Source of the DNA: Escherichia phage ES17
Sequence record: NC_070984.1
Length of the DNA: 64,000 nt
Direction: 5' to 3' (one strand)
The notes below the pieces were generated by a model that did no database searches, was not told where the DNA came from, and saw only the letters and a list, made by a program, of their open reading frames with translations. Made by a program: the position numbers and the translations under genes. Below are positions 2,259 through 51,475 of this stretch, one piece after another. Numbering within the stretch: position 1 is the first letter of the stretch; each line of letters opens with the position of its first letter.

Positions 2259-2419
2259 GTAAAGGAAACAGGGAGCTGTCGAAGATCATCTGATTAACAA
2301 TCTAAGGATTGTTATAGTTTTATTGCCACGATGTTCTTTTGCAGTGTACCCTTGTAGTGGAGAGGGGAGGTTCTTTGACGAAGGGACTTTCCCTTTTCTA
2401 TTTTTAAACTGGAGGAAGC

Positions 2420-3961
2420 ATGTCATTAGATAAACAAATTTATGAAGCTCTAACTGGTAACAATCTTAGTGTAGAGGAAAAGAAAGCACTATTGAATATG
2501 TTGAAAGAGCGTGACCAATGGAGGAAGTATAATAAGATTTTGTCTTTCAAGGCGTATGACTTCCAAAAGAAATTTTATGCAGCAGGATTGAAGCATCGCT
2601 TTAGATTCTTGTGTGCAGCGAACCGTGTTGGTAAATCTTATAGCGAGGCATACGAGTTTGCTTGTCATGTCACAGGTCGCTACCCAACTTGGTGGACAGG
2701 GTATAAATTTAAAAGACCTATCTTAGCATGGGCAGTTGGTATTACAGGGGATTCCACAAGGAAAGTATTGCAAAAGGAATTGTTTGGTACACCTATCGGA
2801 AAGGATACAAATTTATTGGGGACAGGTGTCATTCCTCGTGATGCTATCGTCATTGACACGATAGAACGAGATGGTAACAAACTTCAAATCGTACAAATCA
2901 AACATCAAAATGAAAGAGGGGAGTTTGACGGTTTAAGTACATTAGAATTCCGCTCAACCCAACAGGGTGAACACACATTGATGGGTGCAACAGTTGACTA
3001 CATTTGGTTAGACGAAGAAGATCCATACGAGTCTATGGCTATATTCGCACAGTGCGTCACACGTACACTCACAACTAAAGGTCTAGTTACAATTACAGCT
3101 ACACCAGAGAACGGTTTAACTGAACTGGTAGATAAATTTATGAAAGGTGAAGGGGATGAGAACACAGGTTCTCTATATTTCCAGAATGCTTCTTGGTGGG
3201 ATGCTCATGCAGACCTAGGTGGACATATCACTGACCAAGATATAAAAGATATGACTGAAGGTATTCCAGCGTGGCAGTTAGAGATGCGTTCGAAAGGTAT
3301 GCCATTGTTAGGAAGTGGTTTGATATATGATGTATCGGATGACACAATTAAATGTGAACCATTCGAAATTCCGGATACGTGGAAACGTGTCTGTGCAATT
3401 GATATTGGTATTGATCACCCAACTGCTGCTGTTTGGACAGCTTACGATGCAAACACTGATACTATCTATGTTTACGACTCGTATAAAGAAGGTGGCTTTA
3501 CTCCAGTGTATCATGCTCCAGCTATTAATGGTCGTGGTCAGTGGATTCCTGTCATCCTACCGCATGATGCGGACAATATTGAGAAAGGTAGTGGTTCATC
3601 TGTTGCTCAATTCTATAAAAATGCAGGAGTTAACGTACAGAGTGAGACCTTCTACAACAAAATTGGAATGGATGGTAAAAAGAACTTCTTTGTAGAACCG
3701 GGAATCACAGATATCCGAGAAAGAATGATGAGTGGACGCTTTAAAATCTTTAACACAGCCGCTAACGCTAAGCTATTCGAAGAGAAAGCTAGATATCACC
3801 GTAAGGTTGGTAAGATTATTAAAGAACATGATGACTTAATGGATGCAATGCGCTATTCAGCGTGCTCTGTTACACATCGTGGTCGCTCTAAGCATGACGT
3901 TAGCTACGGAAGTGCTTCTCTGTATGAGGCAAACGTAAGCAGATGGAATCAGAGTTACTAA
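2420..3961 (+). CDS. terL: Terminase large subunit
   Basis: 513 aa; Walker A-like AANRVGKS; C-terminal RNaseH-like nuclease signature CAIDIGIDHPTAAVW; SD GGAGGAAG; followed by portal-sized ORF. Confidence 0.85.
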   Translation: MSLDKQIYEALTGNNLSVEEKKALLNMLKERDQWRKYNKILSFKAYDFQKKFYAAGLKHRFRFLCAANRVGKSYSEAYEFACHVTGRYPTWWTGYKFKRPILAWAVGITGDSTRKVLQKELFGTPIGKDTNLLGTGVIPRDAIVIDTIERDGNKLQIVQIKHQNERGEFDGLSTLEFRSTQQGEHTLMGATVDYIWLDEEDPYESMAIFAQCVTRTLTTKGLVTITATPENGLTELVDKFMKGEGDENTGSLYFQNASWWDAHADLGGHITDQDIKDMTEGIPAWQLEMRSKGMPLLGSGLIYDVSDDTIKCEPFEIPDTWKRVCAIDIGIDHPTAAVWTAYDANTDTIYVYDSYKEGGFTPVYHAPAINGRGQWIPVILPHDADNIEKGSGSSVAQFYKNAGVNVQSETFYNKIGMDGKKNFFVEPGITDIRERMMSGRFKIFNTAANAKLFEEKARYHRKVGKIIKEHDDLMDAMRYSACSVTHRGRSKHDVSYGSASLYEANVSRWNQSY

Positions 3962-30115: not shown

Positions 30116-30934
30116 TTACCAAGATTTATCTAACCATGTCCAGTCGAACAGGTCTTCCGGAGTCTGACCAACAAAGAGCAGCCGAGCATTCTCAAGCATC
30201 TTCTCTTCATCTTCAGTATCGAACTTCTTATAATATTCCATTCGTACTATATGATACATGGTCCATCTATCTGTAACACCAGCCAACAGACTAGCTGCTG
30301 CTTTCTTCCCTATTCCTTGACGTCGAAGCTGAAGCTTACCACCCCACATAACCTCTTTACGTTCCCCACATCCGGGGATGTTATCCGTACCATCTCCAAT
30401 CAACATTTGATAGAAGAAGTTTTGCCATGAAACTAAATCAGATACGTAATGAGGAGGGACTTCTTTCTGTCTTTCTCCACAAGCCCAGCGATAATGCCAT
30501 CCGGGAGTTATCAACAAATCCTTGTCTCTAGTACAGATGATAGTATTCTTATCCCTACGTTGCCTTTCAGCTAGTGCATCATCAGCCTCTCTCCCAAAGA
30601 CCTCAATGTATTCGTACTTGGCTTTAATGTAATCACCAACGTTTTGCCAGTGAAAAGGTCTTTCTCCGGGAGGTCTGTTTGCCTTGTAGTCTTGTTGCTT
30701 AGCAACATCGAAACGGAAGTTACCGCCTTCGCTGAAGTAGAATACAACCTTACTACAACCCGAGCGAGCTATAATTGTATCAATCTTGTACTGAAGTCGT
30801 TCAATCATGAAATTGTAATCAACTGGAACACGTCCTGTGTCAAGGAAGGGATGCTCCTGAGTAAGAGCACCCACTTCATACCGAAGAACGTCAGCGTCCA
30901 CTATAGCAACTTCAGGGAGCTTAACTTCTTCCAT
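30116..30934 (-). CDS. 5'-3' exonuclease / flap endonuclease (FEN, T5 D15-like)
   Basis: Motifs VFGREADDALA, TRDKDL and MLIGDGTDNIPGCG typical of the PIN-like 5' nuclease family; start placed at ATG 30934 with SD AGGA. Confidence 0.8.
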   Translation of the reverse strand: MEEVKLPEVAIVDADVLRYEVGALTQEHPFLDTGRVPVDYNFMIERLQYKIDTIIARSGCSKVVFYFSEGGNFRFDVAKQQDYKANRPPGERPFHWQNVGDYIKAKYEYIEVFGREADDALAERQRRDKNTIICTRDKDLLITPGWHYRWACGERQKEVPPHYVSDLVSWQNFFYQMLIGDGTDNIPGCGERKEVMWGGKLQLRRQGIGKKAAASLLAGVTDRWTMYHIVRMEYYKKFDTEDEEKMLENARLLFVGQTPEDLFDWTWLDKSW

Positions 30935-37123: not shown

Positions 37124-38968
37124 TTAGTGCGTATGCATCCAGTTAAGTCCAATCTGACAATCAGAGGCCAGAGGACATTCCATATTCAAATACTCACCAG
37201 CCTTCTTAACACAAAGCTCGGTGTGCTCTTTGAGTTTCTGTACATCGTTACGATTAACTGAGAACTGGCCCTCGTCGTGCATATCAATTACCTTAGCACA
37301 ACGAACTCCATCCTTCTCAATCCACTTGTTAAGGAACATCATAGCGTATTTCATAACAACAGCACCAGCACATTGCAGGAGAGTGTTAAGTGCTTTATGA
37401 ACCATAACTTTACCAGTGGCATCTCGTCTCATTGTAATCTTACGACCATCAACACCAATCAAGTATCCTTGAGCAGCTTTCTCTGTCATACGATCAATGA
37501 GGATTGCAATACATGGGTTCTCTGCCAAGAAACGTGCTCGCATCACTGAACCTTCGTCAGCCCCACCACCTACAATTGAGCCAAGCTTAGCGTCGCCAGC
37601 ACCGTAGTTGAATGCATAGATAAACGTTTTAGCATTGTCACGAGTAGGAAGACCAGCAAGTTTCTGGTTGTGGGAGTGGATATCACCTTCAAGGAGAATA
37701 TCACGATACATAATAGCAGAAGCTAAACCACGTTCTGCCAGAGCTTTCTTAGCTGGGTTGTTCTCTTCAATTGCCTCAGCAAGCATATCCCTACACTCTT
37801 TAATGAGGTAGTGAGCGAGCATACGAAGTTCAAGTCCAGAACCATCATACCCTAAGAATACTTCTTTACCAGCGGGTATGTAATATTTGTAAGCACCTAT
37901 AGGTTTATCTTTCTTCCCCGGCTTACCTTTCTCGTAAATTACGTTAGTACCTTTTCGTATATAACAACCATCAGGAACAACGTTAGTAATAACGAAAGGA
38001 CGAGAGTGATCACTGTCTGAGTTATAGTCAGACTCAAACAAACTGCGACACTCGTGACCAAACAGACCACGGGAGGGAATATTAACCACGATACGATGTT
38101 TGAATCGAAAAGTCGGCGTAGCGCAGCTGTTAGCTTCTGCCGAAAGTTTACCATCTTCGCGTTCCTTTGCTATGAGTCCACTGATAAGACCTAGCCTGTG
38201 AGCCGCTACAACGCGTCTCTTAAGCAAACTTCCGACACTCCCTAGCTCACCCCCTAACCCTTCTTCAAGAGTCTCCTCGAGGTTTGTAGGAGCTGTAGGC
38301 CACTTGTTTGATGTGGCTAGTGCTTTCTTAATCTCATCAAACGTTACAGGATTACGGCGATTAGGGTTCAACCCCAAACCAAATACGTAAGCCTTCATGT
38401 AATTCTTAGTCTTAAACCTGAAATGCTTTTCTAAGAACTTCTTAATATCAGCGTCAACCATCTCGGCTGTCTGCTTCTGCTTAGCATTGCCTCGCATCCA
38501 AGCAGTATACCATGCTTGGTACGTTCCATACTTTCTCATATCTTTCTTGATTTCGAAAGTATTCCAAGGCTTCTTAGATACGTTAAACTCTGGAGGAAGA
38601 AAGCCTTCATCCATAAGAGCTTCTTTAACTCGTGCATCTTTCGATGGGTCAAAGTCTACGTATTCGACACAGGTGAAAGCTCCACCAATATCTTCTCTCT
38701 TCAGCCCAACCCTATCACAATAGGCTTGAGGCCACTTCTGCAAAGCTCCAGACTTCTTAAACGGCTTCATATAAGTAGAGCCATCTAATCTCATCTTAGG
38801 TAAGAGAGGAATCAACTCTCTGTCAATATTAACAATAATCTCTTTAAGGAGGTGAACATACCACCGAGCATTTCTTCGGTTGAAACTCACTCCGTGCTTT
38901 GCTTGCTTAGAGATTATATCAGCGACAGTCATCTCTGTCAAAAATGGAAGAGCGTCCGGGTTGCTCAC
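37124..38968 (-). CDS. DNA polymerase, family A, polymerase domain only
   Basis: Motif A YDGSGLELRMLAHY, motif B KTFIYAFNYGAGDAKLG, motif C VIDMHDEGQF; no DxE exonuclease motifs in the N-terminal region; GTG start with SD AAGGAG. Confidence 0.85.
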   Translation of the reverse strand: MSNPDALPFLTEMTVADIISKQAKHGVSFNRRNARWYVHLLKEIIVNIDRELIPLLPKMRLDGSTYMKPFKKSGALQKWPQAYCDRVGLKREDIGGAFTCVEYVDFDPSKDARVKEALMDEGFLPPEFNVSKKPWNTFEIKKDMRKYGTYQAWYTAWMRGNAKQKQTAEMVDADIKKFLEKHFRFKTKNYMKAYVFGLGLNPNRRNPVTFDEIKKALATSNKWPTAPTNLEETLEEGLGGELGSVGSLLKRRVVAAHRLGLISGLIAKEREDGKLSAEANSCATPTFRFKHRIVVNIPSRGLFGHECRSLFESDYNSDSDHSRPFVITNVVPDGCYIRKGTNVIYEKGKPGKKDKPIGAYKYYIPAGKEVFLGYDGSGLELRMLAHYLIKECRDMLAEAIEENNPAKKALAERGLASAIMYRDILLEGDIHSHNQKLAGLPTRDNAKTFIYAFNYGAGDAKLGSIVGGGADEGSVMRARFLAENPCIAILIDRMTEKAAQGYLIGVDGRKITMRRDATGKVMVHKALNTLLQCAGAVVMKYAMMFLNKWIEKDGVRCAKVIDMHDEGQFSVNRNDVQKLKEHTELCVKKAGEYLNMECPLASDCQIGLNWMHTH

Positions 38969-38984
38969 TTTATACTCCTTTAAA

Positions 38985-39398
38985 TTATTGGTAAAGTAAA
39001 TCTGTAAATGCTTGGTTATCTTCTACTACATCCAAGGATGTGGAATCAACAGCATATGTTCTCATTGCTGCATTTGTTTGTGCCCAAGTAGATTGAGAAT
39101 AAGAAGACCTAACTTCACGAGGCTGTTCTCGTACCAGATGAGCCACAACCCTCTGATTAGCAACTTCTTCTCTTTCTCTAATAGCTCTCTGAATGTAGGC
39201 CAGCTTCATACCCCAAGCTTCTTCAAACTCTTGAGGGTGTTTATCGCTGATAACCACATACTGACGTTCAGGAATACCAGAGCGAATCTCTGATAATAAT
39301 TCATGGAACAAATCTAGTTCATGTTCAGTGAGATTCATTTCGATATCATCCCACTTGAGAACTAAGAAACGGTTTTGGTGTCTAGCTGGTAATGGCAT
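38985..39398 (-). CDS. Hypothetical protein (137 aa)
   Basis: ORF in operon context. Confidence 0.4.
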   Translation of the reverse strand: MPLPARHQNRFLVLKWDDIEMNLTEHELDLFHELLSEIRSGIPERQYVVISDKHPQEFEEAWGMKLAYIQRAIREREEVANQRVVAHLVREQPREVRSSYSQSTWAQTNAAMRTYAVDSTSLDVVEDNQAFTDLLYQ

Positions 39399-39399
39399 C

Positions 39400-39558
39400 C
39401 TACTCCACCTCTACTTCAATGTAAGTTCTCTCACCGACGTCATCTTTTAAGACCCATGACTTGGCATCTTCTTCAGACTTAAAAGCTTTCACAACGCTGT
39501 AACCACCTTCCCATTCATCACCGAACCAGCGCTGTCCTACGTAAATGTATTCTTTCAT
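39400..39558 (-). CDS. Small hypothetical protein (52 aa)
   Basis: ATG 39558; fills gap between flanking genes; below ORF-track cutoff. Confidence 0.3.
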   Translation of the reverse strand: MKEYIYVGQRWFGDEWEGGYSVVKAFKSEEDAKSWVLKDDVGERTYIEVEVE

Positions 39559-39561
39559 TAC

Positions 39562-39846
39562 TCAACCTTTTGGGAGTGGCATCAAAAATTCCATAGCAGA
39601 TTTAATCTCATTATTGATTCGTGAATCACGATAAGAGATAAACTTACCTTTGCTATCACGTAACATCACATGGGTTCTGGCTGTTTTGTGAGGGAGCAAT
39701 GTGATACTAGTTGGAATAGCATCAATCCCTACAGCGTATTTGTCAATAGTCTTACTTTCAGCCAACAGATAAGACCAAGTACGCGGTTTCTGCTCCGGGC
39801 GGTTAGGGTATGTGTCCCGAATTTGAACCATAGCTAACTTATTCAT
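39562..39846 (-). CDS. Hypothetical protein, tandem paralog 1
   Basis: Shares TARTxVxLRxxxGKFISY...E-L-P-PKG pattern with adjacent gene 39848..40102. Confidence 0.45.
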   Translation of the reverse strand: MNKLAMVQIRDTYPNRPEQKPRTWSYLLAESKTIDKYAVGIDAIPTSITLLPHKTARTHVMLRDSKGKFISYRDSRINNEIKSAMEFLMPLPKG

Positions 39847-39847
39847 A

Positions 39848-40102
39848 TTAAACTCCTTTAGGGAATGGGATGAGATTTTCTACTGCAACACGGAAAGATT
39901 TTTCTACGTTCTTATTCTTATAAGAGATAAATTTTCCATCAGCTCCTCGAAGGAGTACGTTAGTGCGAGCTGTATTTGGGTTTTGTTGAATCATAGAACG
40001 AATGATGTTCTCTGAACCTCTATGCTTATTGGTGAATTTCCAACTGATAGTTTTACCGGTACGAGTTACATCAATGATATTTACGATTTTTACAATAGAC
40101 AT
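39848..40102 (-). CDS. Hypothetical protein, tandem paralog 2
   Basis: NTARTNVLLRGADGKFISY...ENLIPFPKG, paralogous to 39562..39846. Confidence 0.45.
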   Translation of the reverse strand: MSIVKIVNIIDVTRTGKTISWKFTNKHRGSENIIRSMIQQNPNTARTNVLLRGADGKFISYKNKNVEKSFRVAVENLIPFPKGV

Positions 40103-40171
40103 ATTTATTACCTAAGAAGTTTAATTTGGTTTATATAAAAGAAAAGGCCACCTGATTAGGCAGCCTTTGTT

Positions 40172-40465
40172 CTAGAGACGAAGCCAAGTTTGATAGTCAG
40201 CTTCAGTGTAATGGTTGTTTCGAGAGTTGTTTTTCATTTCCTTGAGAGTAGCTCTCAGGTCAATGTTATGCTCTCTCCTTGTTCTATTCGGGTCTGTATC
40301 TTCTAATAGATGGGAGTGATCACTACAAGAGTAGTGCTTATAGTGGTCCCTGTATCCTCTACTTGGAGAATACTTGGTCATTAAAGTTGCAACTCTTTTT
40401 ACACCCTCTGCTTTACAGAATTTACAATAAGTGTGAATTGTACATCTTTTTGTTTCTGCTGACAC
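40172..40465 (-). CDS. Cys/His-rich hypothetical protein (putative zinc-binding)
   Basis: CTIHTYCKFCKAEG...HYSCSDHSH pattern. Confidence 0.4.
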   Translation of the reverse strand: MSAETKRCTIHTYCKFCKAEGVKRVATLMTKYSPSRGYRDHYKHYSCSDHSHLLEDTDPNRTRREHNIDLRATLKEMKNNSRNNHYTEADYQTWLRL

Positions 40466-40475
40466 TATAACCTCT

Positions 40476-40790
40476 TTATGAGCTTAAAGCTCCTTTGCGT
40501 GCTCCAGCTGCTTTTCCAGCTCGATCACCACTTTTGCCGCCGTTTGAACGGTTTGAGCTGACTGATTCAACACGTAAGTTGCTTGACGCATTAGAGCCTC
40601 CAGACTTGACAGCTCGTTTGTGTCCAACGTCTTTACCTCTGACAGCAGCTTTTCCATCGCGCTTTTCAACGATGCGACGTGCACGGTGGCGCTGAGCATC
40701 TCCGCTCTTGCTCCCAATTCCCGTTTCACCGCGCTTGATCGCAGTCCTTCTTTCTTGTGCATAGTCTCTTTTTCCTACATGATCTGCCAT
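40476..40790 (-). CDS. Highly basic low-complexity protein (104 aa)
   Basis: Lys/Arg/Gly/Ser-rich; SD AGGAG 8 nt upstream of ATG; an alternative same-strand frame (40484..40762) is also open. Confidence 0.4.
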   Translation of the reverse strand: MADHVGKRDYAQERRTAIKRGETGIGSKSGDAQRHRARRIVEKRDGKAAVRGKDVGHKRAVKSGGSNASSNLRVESVSSNRSNGGKSGDRAGKAAGARKGALSS

Positions 40791-41119
40791 TAGATTTCTC
40801 CTGATTCTCTTTGATTAAAGGTGTGGATGGCGTGGCAATTAGCACACAATATCCTGCACTTCCTCATCTCTTCTTTTACTTGAGATAAAGATCTGGTGTG
40901 CCCTTTGGAGAGTTCGAATGACTTAGTTAATGGATTTAAATGATCAAACTGAAGAGCAGATGCGTGGCCCTTAAAGCCACACTCAGAGCATCCATAGAAT
41001 GTTTTAACTCTACGGATAAAAGCTAGTTGCCTAACTCTTCTTTTCTCGTTATCTGCCTTTCTCTTATCTCTATTTCCTGGGTCGGCCCATCTACACGAGT
41101 CATTGCAAAACCTCTGCAT
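40790..41119 (-). CDS. HNH endonuclease
   Basis: CSECGFKGHASALQFDHLNP...CANCH. Confidence 0.75.
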   Translation of the reverse strand: MQRFCNDSCRWADPGNRDKRKADNEKRRVRQLAFIRRVKTFYGCSECGFKGHASALQFDHLNPLTKSFELSKGHTRSLSQVKEEMRKCRILCANCHAIHTFNQRESGEI

Positions 41120-41207
41120 TATATACTTCGTTACAAATGGTACCTTACAGGTTTCACATTCCTTGTGGTATGTTGCTATTTGGACCCCCTTGTGTGAACT
41201 ATAAGAA

Positions 41208-41657
41208 TCAACTCTCTTCTAGTATAATCCTGTACATTGCTTCCTGAGCATCTTTCATATCTACATATGGACCAAGCACCTCACTATCTTTTCTGATGAA
41301 CCAATCACCTTCTTTGAATATCAGAGATACGTGAACATCTTTATTATTTGCTTTGACTGCTCGCCCCCATGCTGGGTTATGTCGGGATAAATTATCAATA
41401 TGACAATTATCAGTGCGCCCATCCAGATGGTGTAAATAAGATTGAGGCCACTGGCCTGTCTCTTTATACCATACGGCTTTCTTCAATTCAACAATGCCAC
41501 ATGGTAGTCCTATGTATAGGATATTAGGCTGTAAGCTAAAATTATACCACTTAGATGTGAAAGGGATTAGAGGTTCCCTTTTGGTGAAAAACATCGGCCC
41601 CTCTCGAATGTATTCTAGACTATCTATACACTTCAAAATCTTTTCACTATAAAGCAT
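41208..41657 (-). CDS. HNH-family endonuclease (HNH_3-like)
   Basis: LHHLDGRTDNCHIDNLSRHNPAWG motif. Confidence 0.6.
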   Translation of the reverse strand: MLYSEKILKCIDSLEYIREGPMFFTKREPLIPFTSKWYNFSLQPNILYIGLPCGIVELKKAVWYKETGQWPQSYLHHLDGRTDNCHIDNLSRHNPAWGRAVKANNKDVHVSLIFKEGDWFIRKDSEVLGPYVDMKDAQEAMYRIILEES

Positions 41658-42397
41658 TAACTGTTTACCTTTTCCATAGCTTTAACAATAGCTTTACAGA
41701 AACCAGAACGAACAATGTCATCCGATTCGCCGTCTACAATCTCAGCGAACTCATACAGATCATGTTCATCAATAAAGTTAGTAGCCCAAGTAAGACCGCT
41801 CTCACGACCACGCATATCATGCTGGTTAGTATCACCCATGCAGAACAGCTGAGAGGTTTCTCCCAATCGAGTCATGATTGAGAAGGCTTCATCTTTAGTG
41901 GTGTTCTGGAACTCATCAACAATAACAATAGCATCATTGAAAGAACGACCACGGAGATATTCCAGAGGTACGAACTCGATGTTACTGTTACCGAGCTGGC
42001 ATTCATAGAACCCCTTACCATATCGCTGAGTAATAACATCAATGATAGGCATCAGGTAAGGTTCAAACTTCTCACGCATTCCTCCCGGAAGTAACCCAAG
42101 AGAGTTGCCCATGCCGACAGAAGGGCGACTCAGAATGATCTTCTGAATCTTACCGCTCTTCAGTGCATCAATAACTGTGGAAGTGATTACAAAGGTCTTA
42201 CCACAGCCCGCAGGAGCGTCTGTGAACACAACTTGTTTAGTCTTAATAGCATTGAGTAGCTCAGACTGAAACTGGTTCTGAGGGACTACAGGCTTTGCTA
42301 AAACCACCTCTTCATACTCTCGCTTACCTTTACGAGTAACAAGTGCTTCCCGACGAAGGTCTTTCCGTGATTCTTTCCGTGATTGACGACGACTCAT
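41657..42397 (-). CDS. phoH: PhoH-like ATPase
   Basis: Walker A TDAPAGCGKTF, Walker B VIVDEFQN, PhoH-like spacing and length (246 aa). Confidence 0.85.
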   Translation of the reverse strand: MSRRQSRKESRKDLRREALVTRKGKREYEEVVLAKPVVPQNQFQSELLNAIKTKQVVFTDAPAGCGKTFVITSTVIDALKSGKIQKIILSRPSVGMGNSLGLLPGGMREKFEPYLMPIIDVITQRYGKGFYECQLGNSNIEFVPLEYLRGRSFNDAIVIVDEFQNTTKDEAFSIMTRLGETSQLFCMGDTNQHDMRGRESGLTWATNFIDEHDLYEFAEIVDGESDDIVRSGFCKAIVKAMEKVNS

Positions 42398-42579
42398 TTA
42401 CGCTCTCCAATTTCTTCGTAATGACACTCAGTAGTTAAGCAGTCTTTACAGATTGCTGTATAAACCCTGACGTTAGTAAATCGTTTGTTCTCCCCTTTGG
42501 TTGGAGAGCCTTTGGCAAGCTCTCTGATAACCTTGTTACTTAAATGAAGGTTTGTTCCTTCACATTTAGAGCACTTCAT
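42394..42579 (-). CDS. Small zinc-ribbon protein (61 aa)
   Basis: CSKCEG...CKDCLTTECH Cys pairs. Confidence 0.4.
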   Translation of the reverse strand: MKCSKCEGTNLHLSNKVIRELAKGSPTKGENKRFTNVRVYTAICKDCLTTECHYEEIGERK

Positions 42580-42895
42580 GGTTCATATCTTTATGAATCC
42601 TGTAAACAGCTGTCGCCATACAAGCAACAGCCTCGTTGTGTGGGAGGTGCATCCCTGTAGAACCATCCCAATCTTTGAACTCATTGTCAAAGACTCCGGT
42701 AGGCTCTGGATATAGAGCTTGCAGCTCCACTAGATCATTAGCAACTTGTTGCCATTTATCATCAGACCAGATAGGGTCATCCAACCAGTAATACAAATAG
42801 GAATGGATGATCAATTGCTTTCTATGCCGATTGATTACTTCAGCGGGACTTATCTCACTTCCATTTGAAGTCCTAAATGTATTACTGTCAATCAT
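42566..42895 (-). CDS. Hypothetical protein (109 aa)
   Basis: ORF in operon context. Confidence 0.4.
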   Translation of the reverse strand: MIDSNTFRTSNGSEISPAEVINRHRKQLIIHSYLYYWLDDPIWSDDKWQQVANDLVELQALYPEPTGVFDNEFKDWDGSTGMHLPHNEAVACMATAVYRIHKDMNHEVL

Positions 42896-43077
42896 TTCAC
42901 AACCTTAAATTTGAATGTTGTTGGGTGATAATAATGCAACCTATTGATAGTGTGCTTTGTTTCGAGATATATCCTGCAAGAGTGGCACATGACATGGGTC
43001 AGACCAGTTACAGGGTTAGGTTTGAAGTTGGCGACAGGCTTCTCTTTCTTACAGAAGCTACAGACTTTCTTTTCCAT
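42892..43077 (-). CDS. Small zinc-finger protein (61 aa)
   Basis: Start at internal ATG (MEKKVCSFCKK...CHSC) with SD GGAGAA. Confidence 0.4.
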   Translation of the reverse strand: MEKKVCSFCKKEKPVANFKPNPVTGLTHVMCHSCRIYLETKHTINRLHYYHPTTFKFKVVK

Positions 43078-43291
43078 CTTTTCTCCAGTGGTCAACGAAT
43101 TGCTGAAACACCTTATGGTCGAATGTGAAACCACGAGCAATCCCACACTCTACGAAAGTAGAAGGCATATAGTCTACATCATCTTTAGATGTATGACCAT
43201 AAACTTGAATAAGCTTTTTAATCTTATCCTTCTCTCTTCGAGGAAGCATCCTAAATGCCTCCTGAATATCTGTAATATGTTTGATTTTCAT
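43058..43291 (-). CDS. Hypothetical protein (77 aa)
   Basis: ORF in operon context. Confidence 0.4.
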   Translation of the reverse strand: MKIKHITDIQEAFRMLPRREKDKIKKLIQVYGHTSKDDVDYMPSTFVECGIARGFTFDHKVFQQFVDHWRKDGKESL

Positions 43292-43307
43292 CAGAAAGCC
43301 TCTGATA

Positions 43308-43964
43308 TTAACTCTCCAAAGTTTTCTTCAGAGCTGCCCATGAGATTGGGTAGAGCTTAGCCATCTCTTCATCTACGGATTTAGCAAACACTCGAACTTC
43401 ATATTGAGCGTGAGATGAGAGTCGCTGACGACACAACTCAAACCAGCCATACAAAGAACCAGTCCACACCCACTCAGTGATCATCCCCTGAGGAAGAACA
43501 AATCGAGCTTGCTCTGGTGCAATAAATTCAATCAACTTGTCATATGTTGCTAGAGAAGCTTCATATGCATCGTTAATTAACATTAATGCTTCAGCTCGCT
43601 CTCCGTCGATGAGTTGAATCCCTGAACCTGCATGGAGGTCCGAAGGTCTCGCAAAAATCTCTTTAGGGATGAAGACTTCAACTGCTCCATCTTTATACCG
43701 CCGGGACATTTCGTTCCACGAGAATCCAACCTGATGCTTGCCCAACTGTCTCGCAATTGCGATAGGTGCTTTGCATCGGAAACTGACTTGCGGGTGTCGG
43801 AATGGAGTACAGTGTTTTTCCCGTGCAAGGAAGTTGATAAGTTTTGTGTCTCTCTCATTTAAGTCACCTTCTCGAACAACACCGAAAGATACTCTAGCTG
43901 CATTGACTACAGATTTGTCACTACCCATTGCTTCAATCAGTGTTGCTTGTAGTTGTTCGTTCAA
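43308..43964 (-). CDS. thyX: Flavin-dependent thymidylate synthase family protein (ThyX-like)
   Basis: ThyX-type pattern ARVSFG...HCTPFRH...SRRY...ARFVLPQGMITEWVWTGSLYGWFELCRQRLSSHAQYEVR; the canonical RHR motif position appears as KHQ (by-eye alignment); TTG start with SD AAGGAA. Confidence 0.7.
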   Translation of the reverse strand: MNEQLQATLIEAMGSDKSVVNAARVSFGVVREGDLNERDTKLINFLAREKHCTPFRHPQVSFRCKAPIAIARQLGKHQVGFSWNEMSRRYKDGAVEVFIPKEIFARPSDLHAGSGIQLIDGERAEALMLINDAYEASLATYDKLIEFIAPEQARFVLPQGMITEWVWTGSLYGWFELCRQRLSSHAQYEVRVFAKSVDEEMAKLYPISWAALKKTLES

Positions 43965-44403
43965 TTAAAAGTTCCTTTTTTCGATTCATGTAAACTTGAT
44001 GAGCTTCTTCGGCAGTTCCATACATACCTAGATGTATATCTACTTTATCAATACAAATAACAGCCCTATATCTAATAGTCCCTGATTTATATTTGACAAC
44101 CTTAACACCTTGAAGCCCTGTTTCCTTGTTTGATACCCTAGCCCCGAACTGGTTGTGGCAGTTTGTCGAGGTGTCCACCAATCTCAAGTTCTGTATTGAG
44201 TTGTTCTTCTTATTTCTATCGATATGGTCTATCTGAGAAGAAGGCCACTCTCCATAGTAAAAGAACCATGCCACTTTATGAGCTTTGTGTACTTTCCCTT
44301 TAAACCGCAGGGTTATGTACTTACTTCGAGTTCCTCCTAATTTCTTACCTTTTCGAAAGAACTCTCCAGTCTCAGGGATATACTCTAAATCATCGATTAA
44401 CAT
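43933..44403 (-). CDS. HNH homing endonuclease with AP2-like DNA-binding domain
   Basis: EWPSSQIDHIDRNKKNNSIQNLRLVDTSTNCHNQ (HNH) followed by AP2-like GVKVVKYKSGTIRYRAVI. Confidence 0.75.
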   Translation of the reverse strand: MLIDDLEYIPETGEFFRKGKKLGGTRSKYITLRFKGKVHKAHKVAWFFYYGEWPSSQIDHIDRNKKNNSIQNLRLVDTSTNCHNQFGARVSNKETGLQGVKVVKYKSGTIRYRAVICIDKVDIHLGMYGTAEEAHQVYMNRKKELLIERTTTSNTD

Positions 44404-44668
44404 TCAGAGCTGTATCTAAAAATGCTTTCAGGTTTGCTTCAGTCTGCATACCAGAGAGGCTGTAGTGTGCACCACTGTTACGGTCAGGCACAACGAAAGC
44501 AGGGATACTTCGTACACCATACTTAACAGCTTGTTCACGACCATCACCTTCAAGGATGTTAATCTCTTCCACTTCTACATCAAACTCCTTAACAACCTTC
44601 TCAAAGGTAGGAGCCATTGCTTTACATGGAGCACACTGATCACTATAAAACTTAATTACTTTAGGCAT
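44390..44668 (-). CDS. Thioredoxin/glutaredoxin-like protein
   Basis: 92 aa with active-site CAPC (CxxC) in thioredoxin-fold context YSDQCAPCKAMAPTFEKV. Confidence 0.7.
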   Translation of the reverse strand: MPKVIKFYSDQCAPCKAMAPTFEKVVKEFDVEVEEINILEGDGREQAVKYGVRSIPAFVVPDRNSGAHYSLSGMQTEANLKAFLDTALNVNR

Positions 44669-44676
44669 GTAAATCC

Positions 44677-44856
44677 TTATGCAGTCAGGAGGTGAAGCAG
44701 GAATGGGATAACAACAGCTACGATAACCATGATAGTTGATGCTGTTTGAATCTCACCTTTCTTATCAGGAGTTTCTTCAATAAGCTTACCAGAAGCCCAA
44801 TAAATACCACCACCAATAAAGATAGCCCAAATACCCCATACGATTGCTGATAACAT
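44677..44856 (-). CDS. Small membrane protein with two predicted TM helices (59 aa); holin candidate
   Basis: MLSAIVWGIWAIFIGGGIYWASG...TIMVIVAVVIPFLLHLL; below ORF-track cutoff. Confidence 0.3.
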   Translation of the reverse strand: MLSAIVWGIWAIFIGGGIYWASGKLIEETPDKKGEIQTASTIMVIVAVVIPFLLHLLTA

Positions 44857-44917
44857 ATATCTATATCCTTATAAATAAGTTCGCCCCACCTCGGGTTAGG
44901 AGACAGGGCGGAGGTTT

Positions 44918-45481
44918 TTAGTAAGACACGTCACCACTTGAATGGGACATGTTGCTCTTGACGAAGTAGCAATACTTGCCAAGACCTTCATTAATTTCTT
45001 GAAGCATACTCTGATCGACAGGGTAGGTGGCTAAATCACCATCAAACTCATCCATCTTCTCAATAATACACATCAAGGTCATGCACATATCAGAGAGCAT
45101 ACCGTCCATGTCTAGATCAGCGTTACCCTCTGAGAACCAAGCATGAGAGAGGTAGTTAGCTGCTGTAGCATCCACTTTAACACAGTGGTAACGCATACGT
45201 TCAGCAATACGATCTCCTACCTGTCGTGCGTAATCTTCCAGCTCATCAAACATACCATGAACACCCTGAAATCCTGCACCAGAGACGTTCCAGTGGTAGT
45301 TTTTAGCTTTGATATGCAAGAGTTCCATGTTAGCTTGTAAGCAGCTCAGGATGTGTTCTAGGCTGTTTGCACTAATCATGCCTTGCATTGTTTCAAGGCG
45401 AGAGATTGAAAGCTCAGACCGGTCTAACATACTATAACTGTCACGACCAATCTCAGGTAAATCAAAGACATTCTTATGCAT
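44918..45481 (-). CDS. dps: Dps-like ferritin (DNA protection during starvation family)
   Basis: Dps signature KAKNYHWNVSGAGFQGVHGMFDELEDY...DRIAERM and C-terminal YFVKSNM; start at ATG 45481 with SD GGAGAAAA. Confidence 0.7.
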   Translation of the reverse strand: MHKNVFDLPEIGRDSYSMLDRSELSISRLETMQGMISANSLEHILSCLQANMELLHIKAKNYHWNVSGAGFQGVHGMFDELEDYARQVGDRIAERMRYHCVKVDATAANYLSHAWFSEGNADLDMDGMLSDMCMTLMCIIEKMDEFDGDLATYPVDQSMLQEINEGLGKYCYFVKSNMSHSSGDVSY

Positions 45482-45803
45482 TTGGGTTTTCTCCATCAAG
45501 TTCAACTGAATTAGCAACATTACGTGCAATATTATCCATTACCTGCTGGGTAATTACGATGCAGTTCTGTGGATCTACTGACTTAGAACGCCCCATTTCA
45601 GGGTCATACACCTTAACTCGCTTAGCAGTTGAACCTGTAACCTGAAGAACCTTCAACAGATATCCCTGATTACCGATAGACCAAGCAACAACATCACGAT
45701 TCTTGATAAAGCGACCAAGCATATCACGATGATAAAACTGTTGCATCACCTTGGATTTTGTAATCTCTTCAGTGGGCGGGGCCACTTTACTCAAATCTAA
45801 CAT
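45474..45803 (-). CDS. Hypothetical protein (109 aa)
   Basis: Promoter-like motif about 40 nt upstream. Confidence 0.4.
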   Translation of the reverse strand: MLDLSKVAPPTEEITKSKVMQQFYHRDMLGRFIKNRDVVAWSIGNQGYLLKVLQVTGSTAKRVKVYDPEMGRSKSVDPQNCIVITQQVMDNIARNVANSVELDGENPNA

Positions 45804-45839
45804 AACTCTCTCCTGTAAAATACAAATTCTTATTGTACT

Positions 45840-45855
45840 CTATATACATTTGAGA
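45840..45855 (-). promoter_or_regulatory. Phage promoter-like motif (reverse strand), AAATGTATATAG variant
   Basis: Reverse complement of 45841..45852 reads CAAATGTATATA, one mismatch to TAATGTATA; upstream of gene starting at 45803. Confidence 0.4.
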
Positions 45856-45875
45856 GTTACCATATCTACTACCAA

Positions 45876-46085
45876 TCAGTAGTAAATTACTTTAGACATA
45901 AAAGAACCAGTGTTAGGGTCTTCATGCCAGCGATGTATGTCAGCGCTTTTTACTATTGTGCCCAGAGTCTTCAACTGTTTCTTAGCAATACGAGCCTCTT
46001 TGCGAGTGTCAAACAATTTGATGCTATCTTTTCTCATGTGTTGCTCAAGATCCCAAACAACATGAATAGCCCACATCTTTTTCAT
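45876..46085 (-). CDS. Hypothetical protein, paralog of adjacent gene
   Basis: 69 aa; resembles 46085..46294 (basic middle, C-terminal aromatic ...VIYY vs ...KVHY). Confidence 0.4.
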   Translation of the reverse strand: MKKMWAIHVVWDLEQHMRKDSIKLFDTRKEARIAKKQLKTLGTIVKSADIHRWHEDPNTGSFMSKVIYY

Positions 46086-46294
46086 TAGTAATGCACCTTT
46101 CCGCTGATATAAACACGACCAGAAGAATACTCCTTGGCCTTATGAATACTGATGCTCTTAGTTAAGTCTACATTGAACATAGACTTTTTAAAATCTCGAG
46201 CTTGTTGGCGAGTGGGTAGTGCAGTCATAGTCATGCCACCTGATGCCCACTTAATCTTTGCTAACCAAAATTGTCTCATAGTGATTGGTCTCAT
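46085..46294 (-). CDS. Hypothetical protein, paralog of adjacent gene
   Basis: 69 aa; ATGA-type overlap with downstream gene. Confidence 0.4.
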   Translation of the reverse strand: MRPITMRQFWLAKIKWASGGMTMTALPTRQQARDFKKSMFNVDLTKSISIHKAKEYSSGRVYISGKVHY

Positions 46295-46335
46295 TTTACT
46301 AAACTCTTTAAATATTATTACTATGGATTATAACA

Positions 46336-46557
46336 TTAGGTCTCGATAAGGCGACTAGTATCATAACCGACATACGGAGATATTAGATTATTCTCAGGAG
46401 CAGTCCCTCGACAAGCAATAACAATATCATATTTCCCAGAGCCGTGAACTTCGTGGAAGATTTCAACTGCCTTATCTTTTTCAGTGGAGAATTGTATCGG
46501 ATACACTTCACCTCTTTTGTAGGGGACTATAACATAAAGATCTACTGTTTTATGCAT
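46336..46557 (-). CDS. Hypothetical protein (73 aa)
   Basis: ORF in operon context. Confidence 0.4.
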   Translation of the reverse strand: MHKTVDLYVIVPYKRGEVYPIQFSTEKDKAVEIFHEVHGSGKYDIVIACRGTAPENNLISPYVGYDTSRLIET

Positions 46558-46761
46558 ACCTCACTGCTCCATTTCACTATCGTTTGACCAAACTAGGCTG
46601 TGATGTTTGAATTCACCTTTCAGCTCCTTAGTATGATTACTGTCAAGTTGGGTTTGTTTAACAATCAACCCCACATCAAATTCTGATACAGACTTCTCTC
46701 CTTCTTCTAAGTTGTTGTTATAAACACTTCACAGAAGCTCGGTCATTTTTTCATTAGTCAT

Positions 46762-47271
46762 CTATCTTTCATCCACATTAAAGGATAGGTGAAGCCTACT
46801 TCTCATAGACTTCGCTAGGAGTTTTGCCTCTTCAAGAGTTTTCACTCCATATACAGACTCACGTTTACCATCTTTTTGAATAGATACACAGAATGTCCCG
46901 CCCTTCTCTTGGTAGACATTCTTAACTCCTAGTTTGTTATCAACCCTTGTCTTAGCATTCTGACTGTTCTCAGAGTGATAGCACTTTCTCAGGTTAGTTT
47001 CTTCTAGGTTTTCTCTGTTACCATCGGCATGATCTATTTGATATTCATCCGATAAATCCTCACCAGTATAAAGAACAAAAAGAATCCTATGATTGTGGAC
47101 ATGAACTCCTCCTAAGGGAATTTGATAATATCCATCTTTTGTGAGCTTGCCAGCAGGTTTACCTACTATATCATTAGCAAACTTACTAGGCTTCCTTTTC
47201 CAAGAAAGCCCTGAAGGTGATGACATGTCTATGTTAAAGAGATCAACTACTTCATCATAGCATATCAGCAT
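46762..47271 (-). CDS. HNH homing endonuclease with AP2-like domain
   Basis: HNHRILFVLYTGEDLSDEYQIDHADGNRENLEETNLRKCYHSENSQN plus AP2-like GVKNVYQEKGGTFCVSIQ; start at internal ATG 47271 with SD GGTGG; paralog of 43933..44403. Confidence 0.7.
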   Translation of the reverse strand: MLICYDEVVDLFNIDMSSPSGLSWKRKPSKFANDIVGKPAGKLTKDGYYQIPLGGVHVHNHRILFVLYTGEDLSDEYQIDHADGNRENLEETNLRKCYHSENSQNAKTRVDNKLGVKNVYQEKGGTFCVSIQKDGKRESVYGVKTLEEAKLLAKSMRSRLHLSFNVDER

Positions 47272-47809
47272 GATTTGTTCCACCAAAAGCTTTTGTTGGC
47301 CCTTGTTGGTTATTATATGAACCTTTCGTTGCGTAGCTGTCCTCTTCGGATGAAGAGTGTTTAAAGAATTCCATTTGACCAATACGCATTCCCGGTTTGA
47401 TCAGCAGAGAGTGATGCTGTAGAACATTCTTGAATTCCATAGTTAACTGGCTACCATGCCAACCGCCGTCAGCATGACCAGCGTGCATGTGCTCTAAGAA
47501 ACAACGACCAACAGTGGACCGTAGCATGAAATCGCAGCTAATATTATCTGGCAGATTGAATGTCTCCATTGTATGAGCCAAGAAACACTCACCCGGTTTG
47601 ATCACTAACCCTTCCTCTGGAATCATAACCTCATTGAAGTTAGGAGATTCTTTAGCAGAGATATCAACAACCCCGTTAGCTGCACCTTCCATTAGAACGC
47701 GATCTCCAATACGAACATCAATGCTGGAGGAATTAACAGCTGAGTGTGGTGCATCAATAACACCATCATCAATTAATTTATGTAACTCTGGACTTCCTAG
47801 TAAACTCAT
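47255..47809 (-). CDS. dcd: dCTP deaminase / dUTPase-fold enzyme
   Basis: 184 aa; N-terminal pattern ...LIDDGVID...SSIDVRIGDRV typical of dCTP deaminase. Confidence 0.75.
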   Translation of the reverse strand: MSLLGSPELHKLIDDGVIDAPHSAVNSSSIDVRIGDRVLMEGAANGVVDISAKESPNFNEVMIPEEGLVIKPGECFLAHTMETFNLPDNISCDFMLRSTVGRCFLEHMHAGHADGGWHGSQLTMEFKNVLQHHSLLIKPGMRIGQMEFFKHSSSEEDSYATKGSYNNQQGPTKAFGGTNHADML

Positions 47810-47818
47810 TCTTATTCC

Positions 47819-49132
47819 TTAGTTATTTGTTTCCATGTCAAAAGAGATTCCACGACCCGCTTCATCGGCAAACCGAACTGTACGGGTTTGAGGTTCTAAT
47901 ACTTCAGGGTTGTTAGCAATAAAGCGATCAGCGAGACTATCTCCCAAATCTTGTTCCATACCTTCATCAGTCCAGATAACACGAGAAGGGGCGTTGATAT
48001 CACCAACAGCGAAACCCTGACCAGAGAACTGACGTGCGCTAACAGTTAAGCCGTTTGGTCGACCACGAGAGGGTCTAGCCATCCATCGCTCCATAGAATC
48101 ACTTGTAATACCAAGAGCTTCTTCAAAAGATGTTCTACGAGTAGGGCTTTCTCTTCGTGACTCTTGTGCTCGACGCATTGCAGGGGCTACAAACACCCCT
48201 TCAATTGCATTGTGTCGGTTAGGTTCCTCTTCTCGACCAAGCAGATCACCACCCGTGTTAGTCGTTAAATTTGTCAACCCCTCAGACCAATACGCATGAA
48301 TCTGACCAGAACCGTGAAGACTAGACATAATCTGAATCTCTTCATAAGGGATTCCAAAGAATCGACTCATGTCTCGGTTAACACAATATAGAGCACTTGT
48401 TGTATCTTCAATAAGAGAAACCTGACCTAATCCATTGACTAGATGACTAACTGGCTGAGGTGTGGGAAGATATCGAGTTTGGGCCATGTATTGATGCGCA
48501 ACTGCTGGAGAGGAAAATCTCAACACTTGTGAGTTAGGCCACTTCTTGTGAACATACCTGATTTCACGACTAGAGACAACCACTGGACAAGGGGAAGTCA
48601 TAGCCAAATATCCGTGAGAAGTCATGAATAAGTTGTCAAGAGTCATCGCACCACGGCACATCATAGGAAAATTATCCAATACCTCTTCAATAGAAGTAGG
48701 ATAATTAAACATGAATTGGATACGAACCCCATTCCACTGAAACTCAATAATATCAGTGAATGTTAATTGAGAACCCCCAGCATAGGATTCGTTTGTAGCT
48801 TCAGCAAGAAGTGATGCATATTCAATATCTTGTGACTCTAGCCATTCCTTCACATTACTTTCAATCTCCCGTCCAAGCTCTTGCCAACGATCAGTTGGGA
48901 TGAAAGTGTTTTGAGTTCTTGGTGTTTGTCCTCTGACAATAAAGATATCAATGTCATGTGGAGCTATGTTATTAAGGACAGCATCACGAACAGCCCCACC
49001 AGTAATGATGGGACAGATACCATCTGGAATCAAGTTGTTGTTAATCAACTGTTCAATGAAGTGACGACCAACAGTGATATCAGGTTGTTGAGCAACCTTA
49101 TCTTCAATTTGGTTAATCGGGATAACAATCAT
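47819..49132 (-). CDS. Pol-beta-superfamily nucleotidyltransferase with CCA-adding-enzyme/poly(A)-polymerase-like head motif
   Basis: ITGGAVRDAVLNNIAPHDIDIFIV matches GGxVRD...DxD head-domain signature; about 300 aa C-terminal region of unknown function; start at ATG 49132. Confidence 0.5.
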   Translation of the reverse strand: MIVIPINQIEDKVAQQPDITVGRHFIEQLINNNLIPDGICPIITGGAVRDAVLNNIAPHDIDIFIVRGQTPRTQNTFIPTDRWQELGREIESNVKEWLESQDIEYASLLAEATNESYAGGSQLTFTDIIEFQWNGVRIQFMFNYPTSIEEVLDNFPMMCRGAMTLDNLFMTSHGYLAMTSPCPVVVSSREIRYVHKKWPNSQVLRFSSPAVAHQYMAQTRYLPTPQPVSHLVNGLGQVSLIEDTTSALYCVNRDMSRFFGIPYEEIQIMSSLHGSGQIHAYWSEGLTNLTTNTGGDLLGREEEPNRHNAIEGVFVAPAMRRAQESRRESPTRRTSFEEALGITSDSMERWMARPSRGRPNGLTVSARQFSGQGFAVGDINAPSRVIWTDEGMEQDLGDSLADRFIANNPEVLEPQTRTVRFADEAGRGISFDMETNN

Positions 49133-49133
49133 T

Positions 49134-49691
49134 TTACATTTTCCAATATAATGAAGGTGGGTCGTAAGGGTCAAATCCCGTGAGTTCACACAAGAAAAGA
49201 TAAACCTTAACAGTTAAGTTAACGTCCTGTTCACAATAAGTAAACATATCTTCAGTGAAAGCATCCCATGCTTCCTCTTGCTCACCATAATCGCCCTTAA
49301 GTTCTCCTAAGAACTCACCCCACTGCTTCAAACCATGACCCCTTGGGCCACGTCTAGGGTCGCCTTTCGGATACTCAGGACTGTCACCAATACGGTCAGG
49401 TTTAAGATATCGACTAAGACATAAAGTGTCGAAGACGTTAAAACGATAGTTAATCAGATTGGGATACATCTTCTTCAGAGCACAAAGGTCGAAGTCAATA
49501 ATATTGTGACCCACCAGTACATCTGCTTCTGTAAGTTTACGAATCCCATCTTCAATTTGGTGAGGCCGATAGCCCCACCTTTCACCAGTTTCAACATCGA
49601 AGATATAAATACACCATACTTTAGTTATGTCATCGTACAGTGCATTACTCTCGATATCGAATGCAAACACTTTCTTCTTTTTCTTTACCAC
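49134..49691 (-). CDS. DnaQ-like 3'-5' exonuclease, stand-alone proofreading domain
   Basis: Exo I FAFDIES, Exo [11 protein letters not shown], Exo III YCEQDV; encoded about 10 kb upstream of the polymerase domain gene. Confidence 0.8.
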
Positions 49692-51475
49692 GGTGAAGCT
49701 CCATCTGCTTGGTTGACGAGAGAAGCTGCATCCTCTCCGTTAGTTAAAACGAATGGATTATCTTCATCAACTTCAAAGTCTTCCCTTTCTACAAGTCTCC
49801 CGGTTTCACTGATATACTTAGTATAGCAGACACCTGTCTGACCGTAGTTACGTTCTTTCAGTAATCGAATGACTGAGAGGTTCTTAGCTAAGCCATCAGC
49901 TTGCTTGTCACGCTCAAAGCCAATGATACACTGACACCAACGCATAAGAGAACGAGAGCCAGTGAACTGCACTTCACGTACCTGTCCACCTTCTTCATGA
50001 GGAGCACCACCTGCCGGAGCATTAAGGTGAGATAGCACGAAAGCGGTAAAGTCTAATTCTTTGCACATACCAGCAAGCTCGGAAGCAATCTTACTGATTT
50101 CAGTGTTAATCTCTGAAGGTGTTAAATGGGACACCAGAGCGGTAATGTTATCAAGGATGATGAACTTACACTGGTTTTCAACTACCCAGAAACGGATACA
50201 CTGTTTAATGTCTTCCCATTCATTCTGTCCGAAGTTGTCATACAAGAAGAATTTGTCTGCATAACGAAGTGCTTCATTACGCAAATCCTCCTCATCATAT
50301 TCAACATCAGGTCGGTGGAAAGGAATTGATGCCGACTTACCAGCAATGTTCTTAACAGACATGCCTACCTTCTCTTCCAAGAAGAAGCCACCTCCATTAA
50401 AACCATGTTCTAAGCACAGATGAGCAACCAGCTCATGAGCAATGAGTGTTTTACCACTCCCTACTCCACCACCAATTGCTACCACCTCTCCCCATCGAAT
50501 ACCGAAGGTCATCTCATTCAGAGTCTTCCACGGATATGGGATACCCCACTCCGCTTTCTTCAGAGCATCATCAAGGCAATCAAAGATTGTTACAGCACCA
50601 GCAGGAGATTCCCGCTTTGCTGAGTACTTGAGAATGTTGAATAACTCTTGACCACGACCAGACAGAAGCATGTCATTCGCATCCTTAATCTCTTTCTCCA
50701 CACCGTTGTATGGGAAAGTTCCTTTAGGAATACGAGCAAACTTAACATGAGGGAATAAAGAACGACCTTTTGTTAAAGCTATCTCACCTGCATCATCGTT
50801 GTCCATGCAGAGCACAACCTCCTCAAAACCATTTACGAAGTCTCGATTACGAGACAACACAGAAGAGATTGAACCTGCACCGAACGGTAAAGAAACACAT
50901 GCTGGTTTGATGTTTGTTGCATTTGTAAAAGCTGTAAGGACATGGAAACCTGACATACAGGATAGCGGGTCTTCAAAAATGAACAGCTTCTTGTTGTACA
51001 CATCTCCACGTTGAGCTTGTGCCATACCAAACAAATCTGCTTCTTTCACACTGCCGACGTAATAGAACTTCTTACTATCTAGCAGCTTAACCTCATAACC
51101 AACGATGTTTCCATCACGTTCACGAGGAAAGAAGTAGCTGTCTGGTGTCTGACCATCAGTTTGACTGAGACCAATACGACACTCAAACCGCTCTGATACA
51201 GCTTTAGGGATTAAACGGCGAGTGAGTTCACCCTGAGGAAGCTCTAAGCAATCATCTAAGACTTCTCTCAACTCTTCAGGGGATAACTCTTTCTTCTCGT
51301 TTGGAGTAGGTGTAGTGCCCTTTTCGAACACTTCGTAATTCCCACAACGGTTACAACTTCCCCACTCCTCACCAGTCTCTTCGTTACGGAAGAGAATCAT
51401 GTGGTTGTGGGTTTTATCACGACCATGAGAGATACATTCCTTACAACCTGTGTCTCCCAAAATGATCTTTGACAT
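49685..51475 (-). CDS. DNA primase-helicase (T7 gp4-like)
   Basis: N-terminal Cys4 zinc ribbon CKECISHG...CNRCGNY; TOPRIM DxD ([12 protein letters not shown]); DnaB-family Walker [10 protein letters not shown]. Confidence 0.85.

Follow-up and report, generated by a model that had tools for sequence, protein, structure and literature searches.

In the genome of Escherichia phage ES17 (NC_070984.1), the 3'-5' exonuclease and the polymerase of a family A DNA polymerase are encoded by two separate genes. Within the 64,000-nucleotide (nt) stretch of this genome that was analysed, hereafter the window, one open reading frame (ORF) encodes a stand-alone exonuclease of 185 amino acids (aa), here called Exo, and another encodes a polymerase-only protein of 614 aa, here called Pol. 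An original prediction made from the DNA letters had proposed such a pair about 10 kb apart, and both ORFs were recovered at the coordinates and strand given in Table 1, with a gap of 10,165 bp. The two-gene arrangement is real and common to whole phage groups. It is also already known and annotated, and the novelty implied by the prediction is withdrawn in view of existing GenBank annotations and two published accounts (PMC9965538; PMC3517423). In the reading preferred here, which is given a probability of about 0.8, Exo and Pol are two subunits of one replicative family A polymerase resembling the gene 5 product (gp5) of bacteriophage T7, and would assemble non-covalently to edit the primer 3' end.

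By nucleotide identity, the genome is that of a Kuravirus, a phiEco32-like phage of E. coli. The region of the pol gene is 98.8% identical to that of Escherichia phage myPSH2311 and 97-98% identical to that of many phiEco32-like podoviruses, such as vB_EcoP_SU10 (SU10; genus Kuravirus, Gordonclarkvirinae). From about 30 kb onward all genes of the window are carried on the minus strand, and the GC skew changes sign at the same place.

Exo and Pol as homologues of the two parts of a T7-type polymerase

Exo matches the Pfam family DNA_pol_A_exo1 (PF01612; E 3e-8, 34.1 bits against a cut-off of 23.6) and has no other substantial match. Its best solved homologue in a phmmer search is T7 gene 5 polymerase, over residues 3-178, and it also matches PHROGs named 'DNA polymerase exonuclease subunit'. 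Residue conservation was read from an alignment with 53 database homologues, giving 54 stand-alone sequences in all. In this alignment D12 and E14 of Exo I (FDIES), H62, N63 and D68 of Exo II (HNIIDFD) and D156 of Exo III (YCEQD) show no variation, and Y152 is retained in 90% or more of the sequences. With an Exo I D-x-E, an Exo II aspartate and an Exo III Y-x3-D in place, the product is classed from its sequence as a DEDDy (DnaQ-like) 3'-5' exonuclease. The AlphaFold2 model is a confident one (pLDDT 93.6), the 27 best fold matches in the PDB all being T7 DNA polymerase chains. The description of Exo as a DnaQ-like protein consisting of the three exonuclease motifs and no polymerase part is thus borne out by the family match and the conserved DEDDy residues. 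A six-frame search of the window found no second copy.

Pol supplies the complementary part. Its match to the Pfam family DNA_pol_A (PF00476; E 3.6e-23) is confined to residues 361-611, and phmmer again retrieves T7 gp5. Domain mapping with profile hidden Markov models therefore assigns one family to each protein, PF01612 to Exo and PF00476 to Pol. No exonuclease family is matched by residues 1-360 of Pol even at E<=10, and the prediction that Pol would carry motifs A, B and C and no exonuclease motifs at its N-terminus was confirmed by this search together with the alignment. The catalytic residues are D375 in motif A, R443, K447 and Y451 in motif B, and H564, D565 and E566 in motif C. Among 83 homologues, D375, R443, K447, Y451 and H564 are invariant, and 90% or more retain D565 and E566. 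In T7 these motifs align to D475, to R518, K522 and Y526, and to D654 and E655. Y451 (...AKTFIYAFNYG...) corresponds to Y526 at the 'B3' position of motif B, which bears on discrimination against ddNTPs and where a tyrosine is typical of the T7-like cluster (PMC10201439).

The predicted structure of Pol (pLDDT 92.2) has T7 gp5 chains as its top 27 Foldseek matches in the PDB, with E-values down to 2.9e-26, and on this model the thumb, palm and fingers have the gp5-like fold of a T7-like family A polymerase domain. The model has no separate exonuclease-like domain at the N-terminus. Its first elements are helices corresponding in the alignment to T7 residues ~210-236; next come a region of mixed strands and helices and then a long helical insertion. 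Pol consequently resembles the polymerase part of a T7-like enzyme and not the whole, which would carry an N-terminal exonuclease domain on the same polypeptide. Relative to T7 and to fused relatives, Pol contains two helical insertions, at about residues 136-225 and 390-418, and a beta-rich one at about 315-365 that immediately precedes motif A; by this alignment the three are lineage-specific. The equivalent of the thioredoxin-binding loop of T7 is present at residues ~56-135, where it is aligned as about 22 residues shorter than in T7.

The concatenation of Exo and Pol is collinear both with T7 gp5 and with three fused metagenomic relatives (P0174, P0177 and P0169). The C-terminal tail of Exo aligns to T7 residues 188-203 and the N-terminus of Pol begins at about residue 204, which locates the break, on alignment, in the segment linking the exonuclease domain to the polymerase domain at approximately T7 residue 203/204, with nothing lost or duplicated. 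A single PHROG polymerase profile, phrog_17, gives the same picture, with Exo covering positions 667-826 and Pol the adjacent, non-overlapping positions 836-1233. Linker features are retained at both sides of the break, as FDxxNPP in the tail of Exo and WxxxFxxE at the N-terminus of Pol.

Each gene has its own signals for translation, as had been proposed. AAGGAG stands 6 nt before the GTG of pol, and GGAG 7 nt before the GTG of exo, which overlaps the primase-helicase stop codon. The proposal that neither an intron nor an intein interrupts a single gene also holds, since a scan of the window returned no Rfam family at gathering thresholds and the gp5 alignment leaves no unaligned or extra residues at the C-terminus of Exo or the N-terminus of Pol that could be intein halves.

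A separate observation concerns the sequence within the pol gene. At 38913..38941 on the minus strand, inside codons 10-19, the DNA matches the extended sigma-70 promoter consensus perfectly, having TTGACA-N17-TATAAT and a TG upstream of the -10 element. It is the only 12/12 match in the window (0.06 expected; one or more found in 6 of 100 shuffled sequences), and if used it would initiate transcription downstream of pol's start codon. This site is identical in SU10, has lost its -35 element in Suseptimavirus 101114UKE3 and is absent from GAP52 and from Salmonella phage 7-11. In a scan of 36.5-52.5 kb for promoters and terminators, sites were scarcer than in shuffled sequence (22 against 33, and 8 against 9.6), and for this reason transcription units could not be inferred from it, the perfect promoter being the exception.

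Table 1. Features of the window that bear on the divided polymerase.
Feature	Coordinates	Strand	Basis
Predicted 3'-5' proofreading exonuclease subunit (Exo), 185 aa	49134..49691	-	Homologous to T7 gp5 residues ~1-203
Predicted polymerase subunit (Pol), 614 aa	37124..38968	-	Homologous to T7 gp5 residues ~204-704
T7 gp4-like primase-helicase	49685..51475	-	Pfam DnaB_C and weak Toprim_2 match; stop codon overlaps Exo start
Interval between the two genes, 10,165 bp, 25 ORFs	38969..49133	-	ORF list, Pfam, SU10 comparison
Two HNH endonuclease genes	40790..41119 and 41208..41657	-	Pfam HNH and HNH_3, just under cut-offs
HNH endonuclease between ThyX and thioredoxin	43933..44403	-	HNH_3, E 1.6e-13; absent from SU10
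HNH endonuclease overlapping dCTP deaminase 3' end	46762..47382	-	HNH_3, E 5e-8
5'-3' exonuclease (FEN-like), separately encoded	30116..30934	-	98% identical to SU10 gp29; 5_3_exonuc_N E 5.5e-7, below cut-off

The split in related phages and the interval between the genes

Comparison with related phages shows exo and pol as separate genes in SU10, 7-11, Vp_R1 and LUZ24 as well. SU10 has the same genes in the same order at 97-99% nucleotide identity, with gp075 annotated as 'DNA polymerase exonuclease subunit' and gp051 as 'DNA polymerase', and in YF01, another Kuravirus of the phiEco32-like kind, the pair is gp70 and gp49. The order of helicase, exo, cargo genes and pol recurs in Salmonella phage 7-11 (Grimontviridae), where one endonuclease VII gene intervenes between helicase and exo, and where the 6.7-kb gap holds a nucleotide-metabolism set similar to that of the window, with dcd, PhoH, thioredoxin, ThyX and a Dps-like protein among its genes. 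Vibrio phage Vp_R1, also of the Grimontviridae, has the same split. Its helicase is followed after an 81-nt gap by exo, and a nucleotide-metabolism module separates exo from pol by about 19.5 kb, a figure that takes the interval to run through the ends of the record. Among the window, 7-11 and Vp_R1 the order of the genes within the gap varies.

In the group of LUZ24, PaP3 and tf (Bruynoghevirus), the polymerase is likewise split into a part I that is exo and a part II that is pol, the latter about 39% identical to Pol over its full length. The 'DNA polymerase part I' of Pseudomonas phage LUZ24 directly follows the primase-helicase gene, an exonuclease-less pol lies downstream, and the gap is only 2.3 kb, with eight ORFs of which seven are annotated as hypothetical. 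Helicase followed by exo is thus an order shared by SU10, LUZ24 and Vp_R1, while the gap ranges through 2.3, 6.7, 8.6, 10.2 and ~19.5 kb from phage to phage.

Wider searches give the same result. All 59 homologues of Exo in a large protein collection, down to ~33% identity, are short (101-247 aa) and have no polymerase part, although some come from short contigs. Among the best 120 homologues of Pol, 113 are without an exonuclease domain and the seven fused ones rank lowest. The longest contigs of several Exo and Pol homologues are equal in size (81,643; 86,560; 100,903; 86,289; 28,562), which implies that those homologues share contigs. Records of kuravirus-like phages with each gene number ~96 and ~97. 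In a crude neighbour-joining tree, whose internal branches measure 0.008-0.03 and whose terminal ones ~0.2, the seven fused relatives form one clade beside the LUZ24-like group, without resolution; because of this, no claim is made on one or several fissions or on re-fusion. The closest fused relative, P0174, lies on a ~45-kb contig in the order helicase, ligase, fused polymerase, and is uninformative on the direction of evolution.

The interval in the window contains seven ORFs with a family match, four HNH endonuclease genes and 14 small ORFs without a match. The seven encode a nucleotidyltransferase, a dCTP deaminase, a ferritin/Dps-like protein, a thioredoxin, ThyX, a protein consisting of a stand-alone Nlig-Ia domain, and PhoH. 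The kinds of gene that had been listed for this interval were right, and the count was not: there are 25 ORFs where about 15 had been given, the small ones having been undercounted. The nucleotidyltransferase, a weak match to the PolyA_pol head domain of Pfam, was given a GTG start at 49189 by the ORF program, which would make it overlap the exo gene by 56 nt (49130..49189, minus strand). More probably it starts with an ATG, at 49132, which follows the exo stop codon by one base, as in the arrangement in SU10.

It had further been suggested that homing-endonuclease activity drove the two genes apart. Two of the four HNH assignments are above and two just below the Pfam cut-offs, and in a direct comparison all four genes lie within segments that are missing from SU10 (40792-41668, 43964-44403 and 46305-47540). 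The first of these segments matches only 64 bp of SU10, which makes both HNH genes there an insertion relative to that phage. The 8.6-kb gap of SU10 has no HNH gene annotated within it, against 10.2 kb in the window with four extra HNH genes and a few indels, and SU10 has the same split. Since the split also occurs in 7-11, Vp_R1 and LUZ24, it is far older than the HNH insertions of the window. Homing endonucleases were therefore rejected as its cause, the HNH genes being recent additions to the lineage of the window. A literature search on Kuravirus DNA polymerase together with homing endonucleases found nothing.

The pol gene itself is a target of homing elements in relatives, and that of the window is uninterrupted. 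LUZ24 pol is further interrupted by an endonuclease gene, giving parts II and III, an interruption termed an intron in PMC3517423. In the kuravirus PE006, positions 2023..2596 hold a homing endonuclease together with a weak match to a group I intron at motif C of pol (28.7 bits, below the gathering score of 50). Many metagenomic pol ORFs of ~450 aa, such as P0073, stop inside motif B (...AKTFIYAFN).

Several other features of the interval were recorded in passing. Around the HNH gene that overlaps the dCTP deaminase gene (dcd), over 46305..47940, identity to SU10 falls from ~97% to 76% across the 5' part of dcd and the 3' end of the nucleotidyltransferase gene; from the sequence, this tract looks like a replacement or co-conversion tract beside a homing endonuclease. 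The 109-aa protein at 42566..42895 (minus strand) consists only of the N-terminal Ia domain of NAD-dependent DNA ligases, which binds NAD+ (PF22745, E 3.9e-35). Its homologue in SU10 is annotated 'DNA ligase'; the protein here is without the ligase catalytic core. The phage thioredoxin gene (44390..44668, minus strand) is located between exo and pol, and for the related phage Privateer the phage thioredoxin has been hypothesised to act as a processivity factor for the polymerase (PMC7881722). A 52-aa ORF at 39400..39558 (minus strand) lies in a segment of ~143 bp that is absent from SU10.

A proposed two-subunit replicase and its alternatives

The case for Exo and Pol as subunits of one replicase is built on observations made directly, namely homology, collinearity, intact catalytic residues and linker remnants, with the two genes co-occurring in conserved synteny among phage groups that belong to different families. 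Inferred from them are the physical complex, trans proofreading and the sequence in which the evolutionary events took place. An ancestral gene resembling gene 5 may have split in the linker between its exonuclease and polymerase domains, with the exo half retaining the ancestral place immediately after the primase-helicase gene. Cargo would then have built up between the halves, in the form of nucleotide-metabolism genes, small ORFs and, of late, HNH endonuclease genes. In the phage of today, Exo would dock non-covalently on Pol where the exonuclease domain of gp5 sits, and would from there proofread the primer 3' terminus. That proofreading would need assembly in trans had been stated from the outset, and it is still the most reasonable reading.

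Several points weigh against such an assembly. The literature searched yielded no biochemistry on this pair of proteins and no biochemical study of a two-subunit family A enzyme of this kind. With 10 kb between them, the genes also differ in translational context, exo overlapping the helicase stop codon and pol having a strong Shine-Dalgarno sequence of its own. In the interval are two hairpins resembling terminators (44910..44882 and 40168..40143), and the two products need not for that reason be made in equal amounts. Finally, the crude tree leaves the choice between one and several fissions unsettled.

Three alternatives were weighed, none of which is favoured. The strongest of them, although improbable, holds that Pol works free of any exonuclease and that Exo is an independent 3'-5' DNase for recombination, end processing or degradation of host DNA. 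Such independence would suit the 10.2 kb and 25 genes between the two and the hairpins just described, and the weaker fold matches of Exo do include free-standing DEDD nucleases that serve other roles, such as RNase T, ExoI and TREX1. The best matches in sequence and fold are nonetheless to the exonuclease domain of T7 gp5 specifically and not to free-standing nucleases, and Exo occupies the position after the helicase gene where T7 has gene 5. It also co-occurs with the exonuclease-less polymerases of the clade in each related genome examined, and both sides of the break have kept conserved remnants of the linker. Moreover, family A polymerases need the exonuclease domain for stability, according to work cited in PMC10201439.

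Appreciably less probable is the idea that Exo is recruited mainly through the primase-helicase, as an editing factor bound to the helicase at the fork instead of a fixed, domain-like partner of Pol. The overlap of the exo start with the primase-helicase stop, and the same adjacency in SU10 and LUZ24, speak for a connection of this sort, and translational coupling of the two genes is possible from the overlap. The endonuclease VII gene that intervenes in 7-11 and the 81-nt gap in Vp_R1 loosen that connection, the adjacency has a simple explanation in the ancestral order of T7, where gene 4 precedes gene 5, and no helicase-binding element was identified. That the two halves are rejoined into one polypeptide post-transcriptionally or post-translationally, whether through trans-splicing, through a split intein or through a programmed frameshift, is very unlikely, for despite the homing-endonuclease and intron insertions inside pol in related phages (LUZ24 parts II and III; PE006), 25 genes separate halves that each have a start codon and a Shine-Dalgarno sequence, and the ideas of an intein and of trans-splicing were rejected on the absence of an Rfam match at threshold in the window and of any extra junction residues when the 185-aa and 614-aa proteins are aligned to gp5.

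Returning to the two-subunit replicase, its lasting separation could conceivably be functional rather than a neutral relic. Decoupling the supply of Exo from that of Pol could tune the fidelity of replication or the exonuclease load during infection, with exo possibly coupled to the primase-helicase and pol standing at the far end of a module for nucleotide metabolism and thioredoxin. This suggestion is a doubtful one; if true, it would describe an ancient and widespread two-subunit family A replicase. As a discovery the split itself has little value, having been annotated publicly and described for the genus and its relatives. Its value may lie in enzymology, as a natural and evolutionarily stable two-chain polymerase of the T7 type. 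A study of the clade could show how an exonuclease domain stabilises a polymerase domain and edits for it, and the clade could yield separable polymerase and proofreading modules.

Comparison with known divided and intact polymerases

Divided family A polymerases have been noted in phage genome papers for some time. Kuravirus-like phages have, in all members of the group, one gene each for the polymerase, the 5'-3' exonuclease and the 3'-5' exonuclease (PMC9965538, 2023), and in the window the FEN-like gene is accordingly a third Pol I-type activity on a gene of its own, as is gene 6 of T7. In every member of the LUZ24 group the polymerase and the proofreading exonuclease are on separate genes (PMC3517423, 2012), and the same paper, citing Savalia 2008, indicates that the split of phiEco32 had already been reported.

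Another known case is that of the S-SBP1-like cyanophages (Czernecki et al. 2023, PMC10201439), in which a T7-like family A polymerase of a cyanopodovirus is likewise carried on separate exo and pol genes, parted where the two domains meet. The complex that AlphaFold2 predicted for the two cyanophage proteins was reported as indistinguishable from an intact polymerase. Exo and Pol of ES17 agree with that gene fission in covering one polymerase without overlap or loss. They differ from it in that the cyanophage genes are adjacent and overlapping, through a recent +1 frameshift, whereas those of the window are separated by 10,165 bp and 25 ORFs in a split common to several groups, including different families. 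The cyanophage split was called the first seen in family A polymerases; because that statement covered only adjacent cyanophage genes, the older, non-adjacent split is under-recognised in the polymerase literature.

The closest intact counterpart is T7 gene 5 polymerase (PDB 1T7P, 6N7W and others), which is the best solved homologue of both halves and shares with Pol the tyrosine at motif B. T7 gp5 is one polypeptide, with the longer thioredoxin-binding loop (by ~22 residues) and without the three insertions of Pol. In both T7 and the window, the genes follow one another in the order helicase, polymerase and 5'-3' exonuclease.

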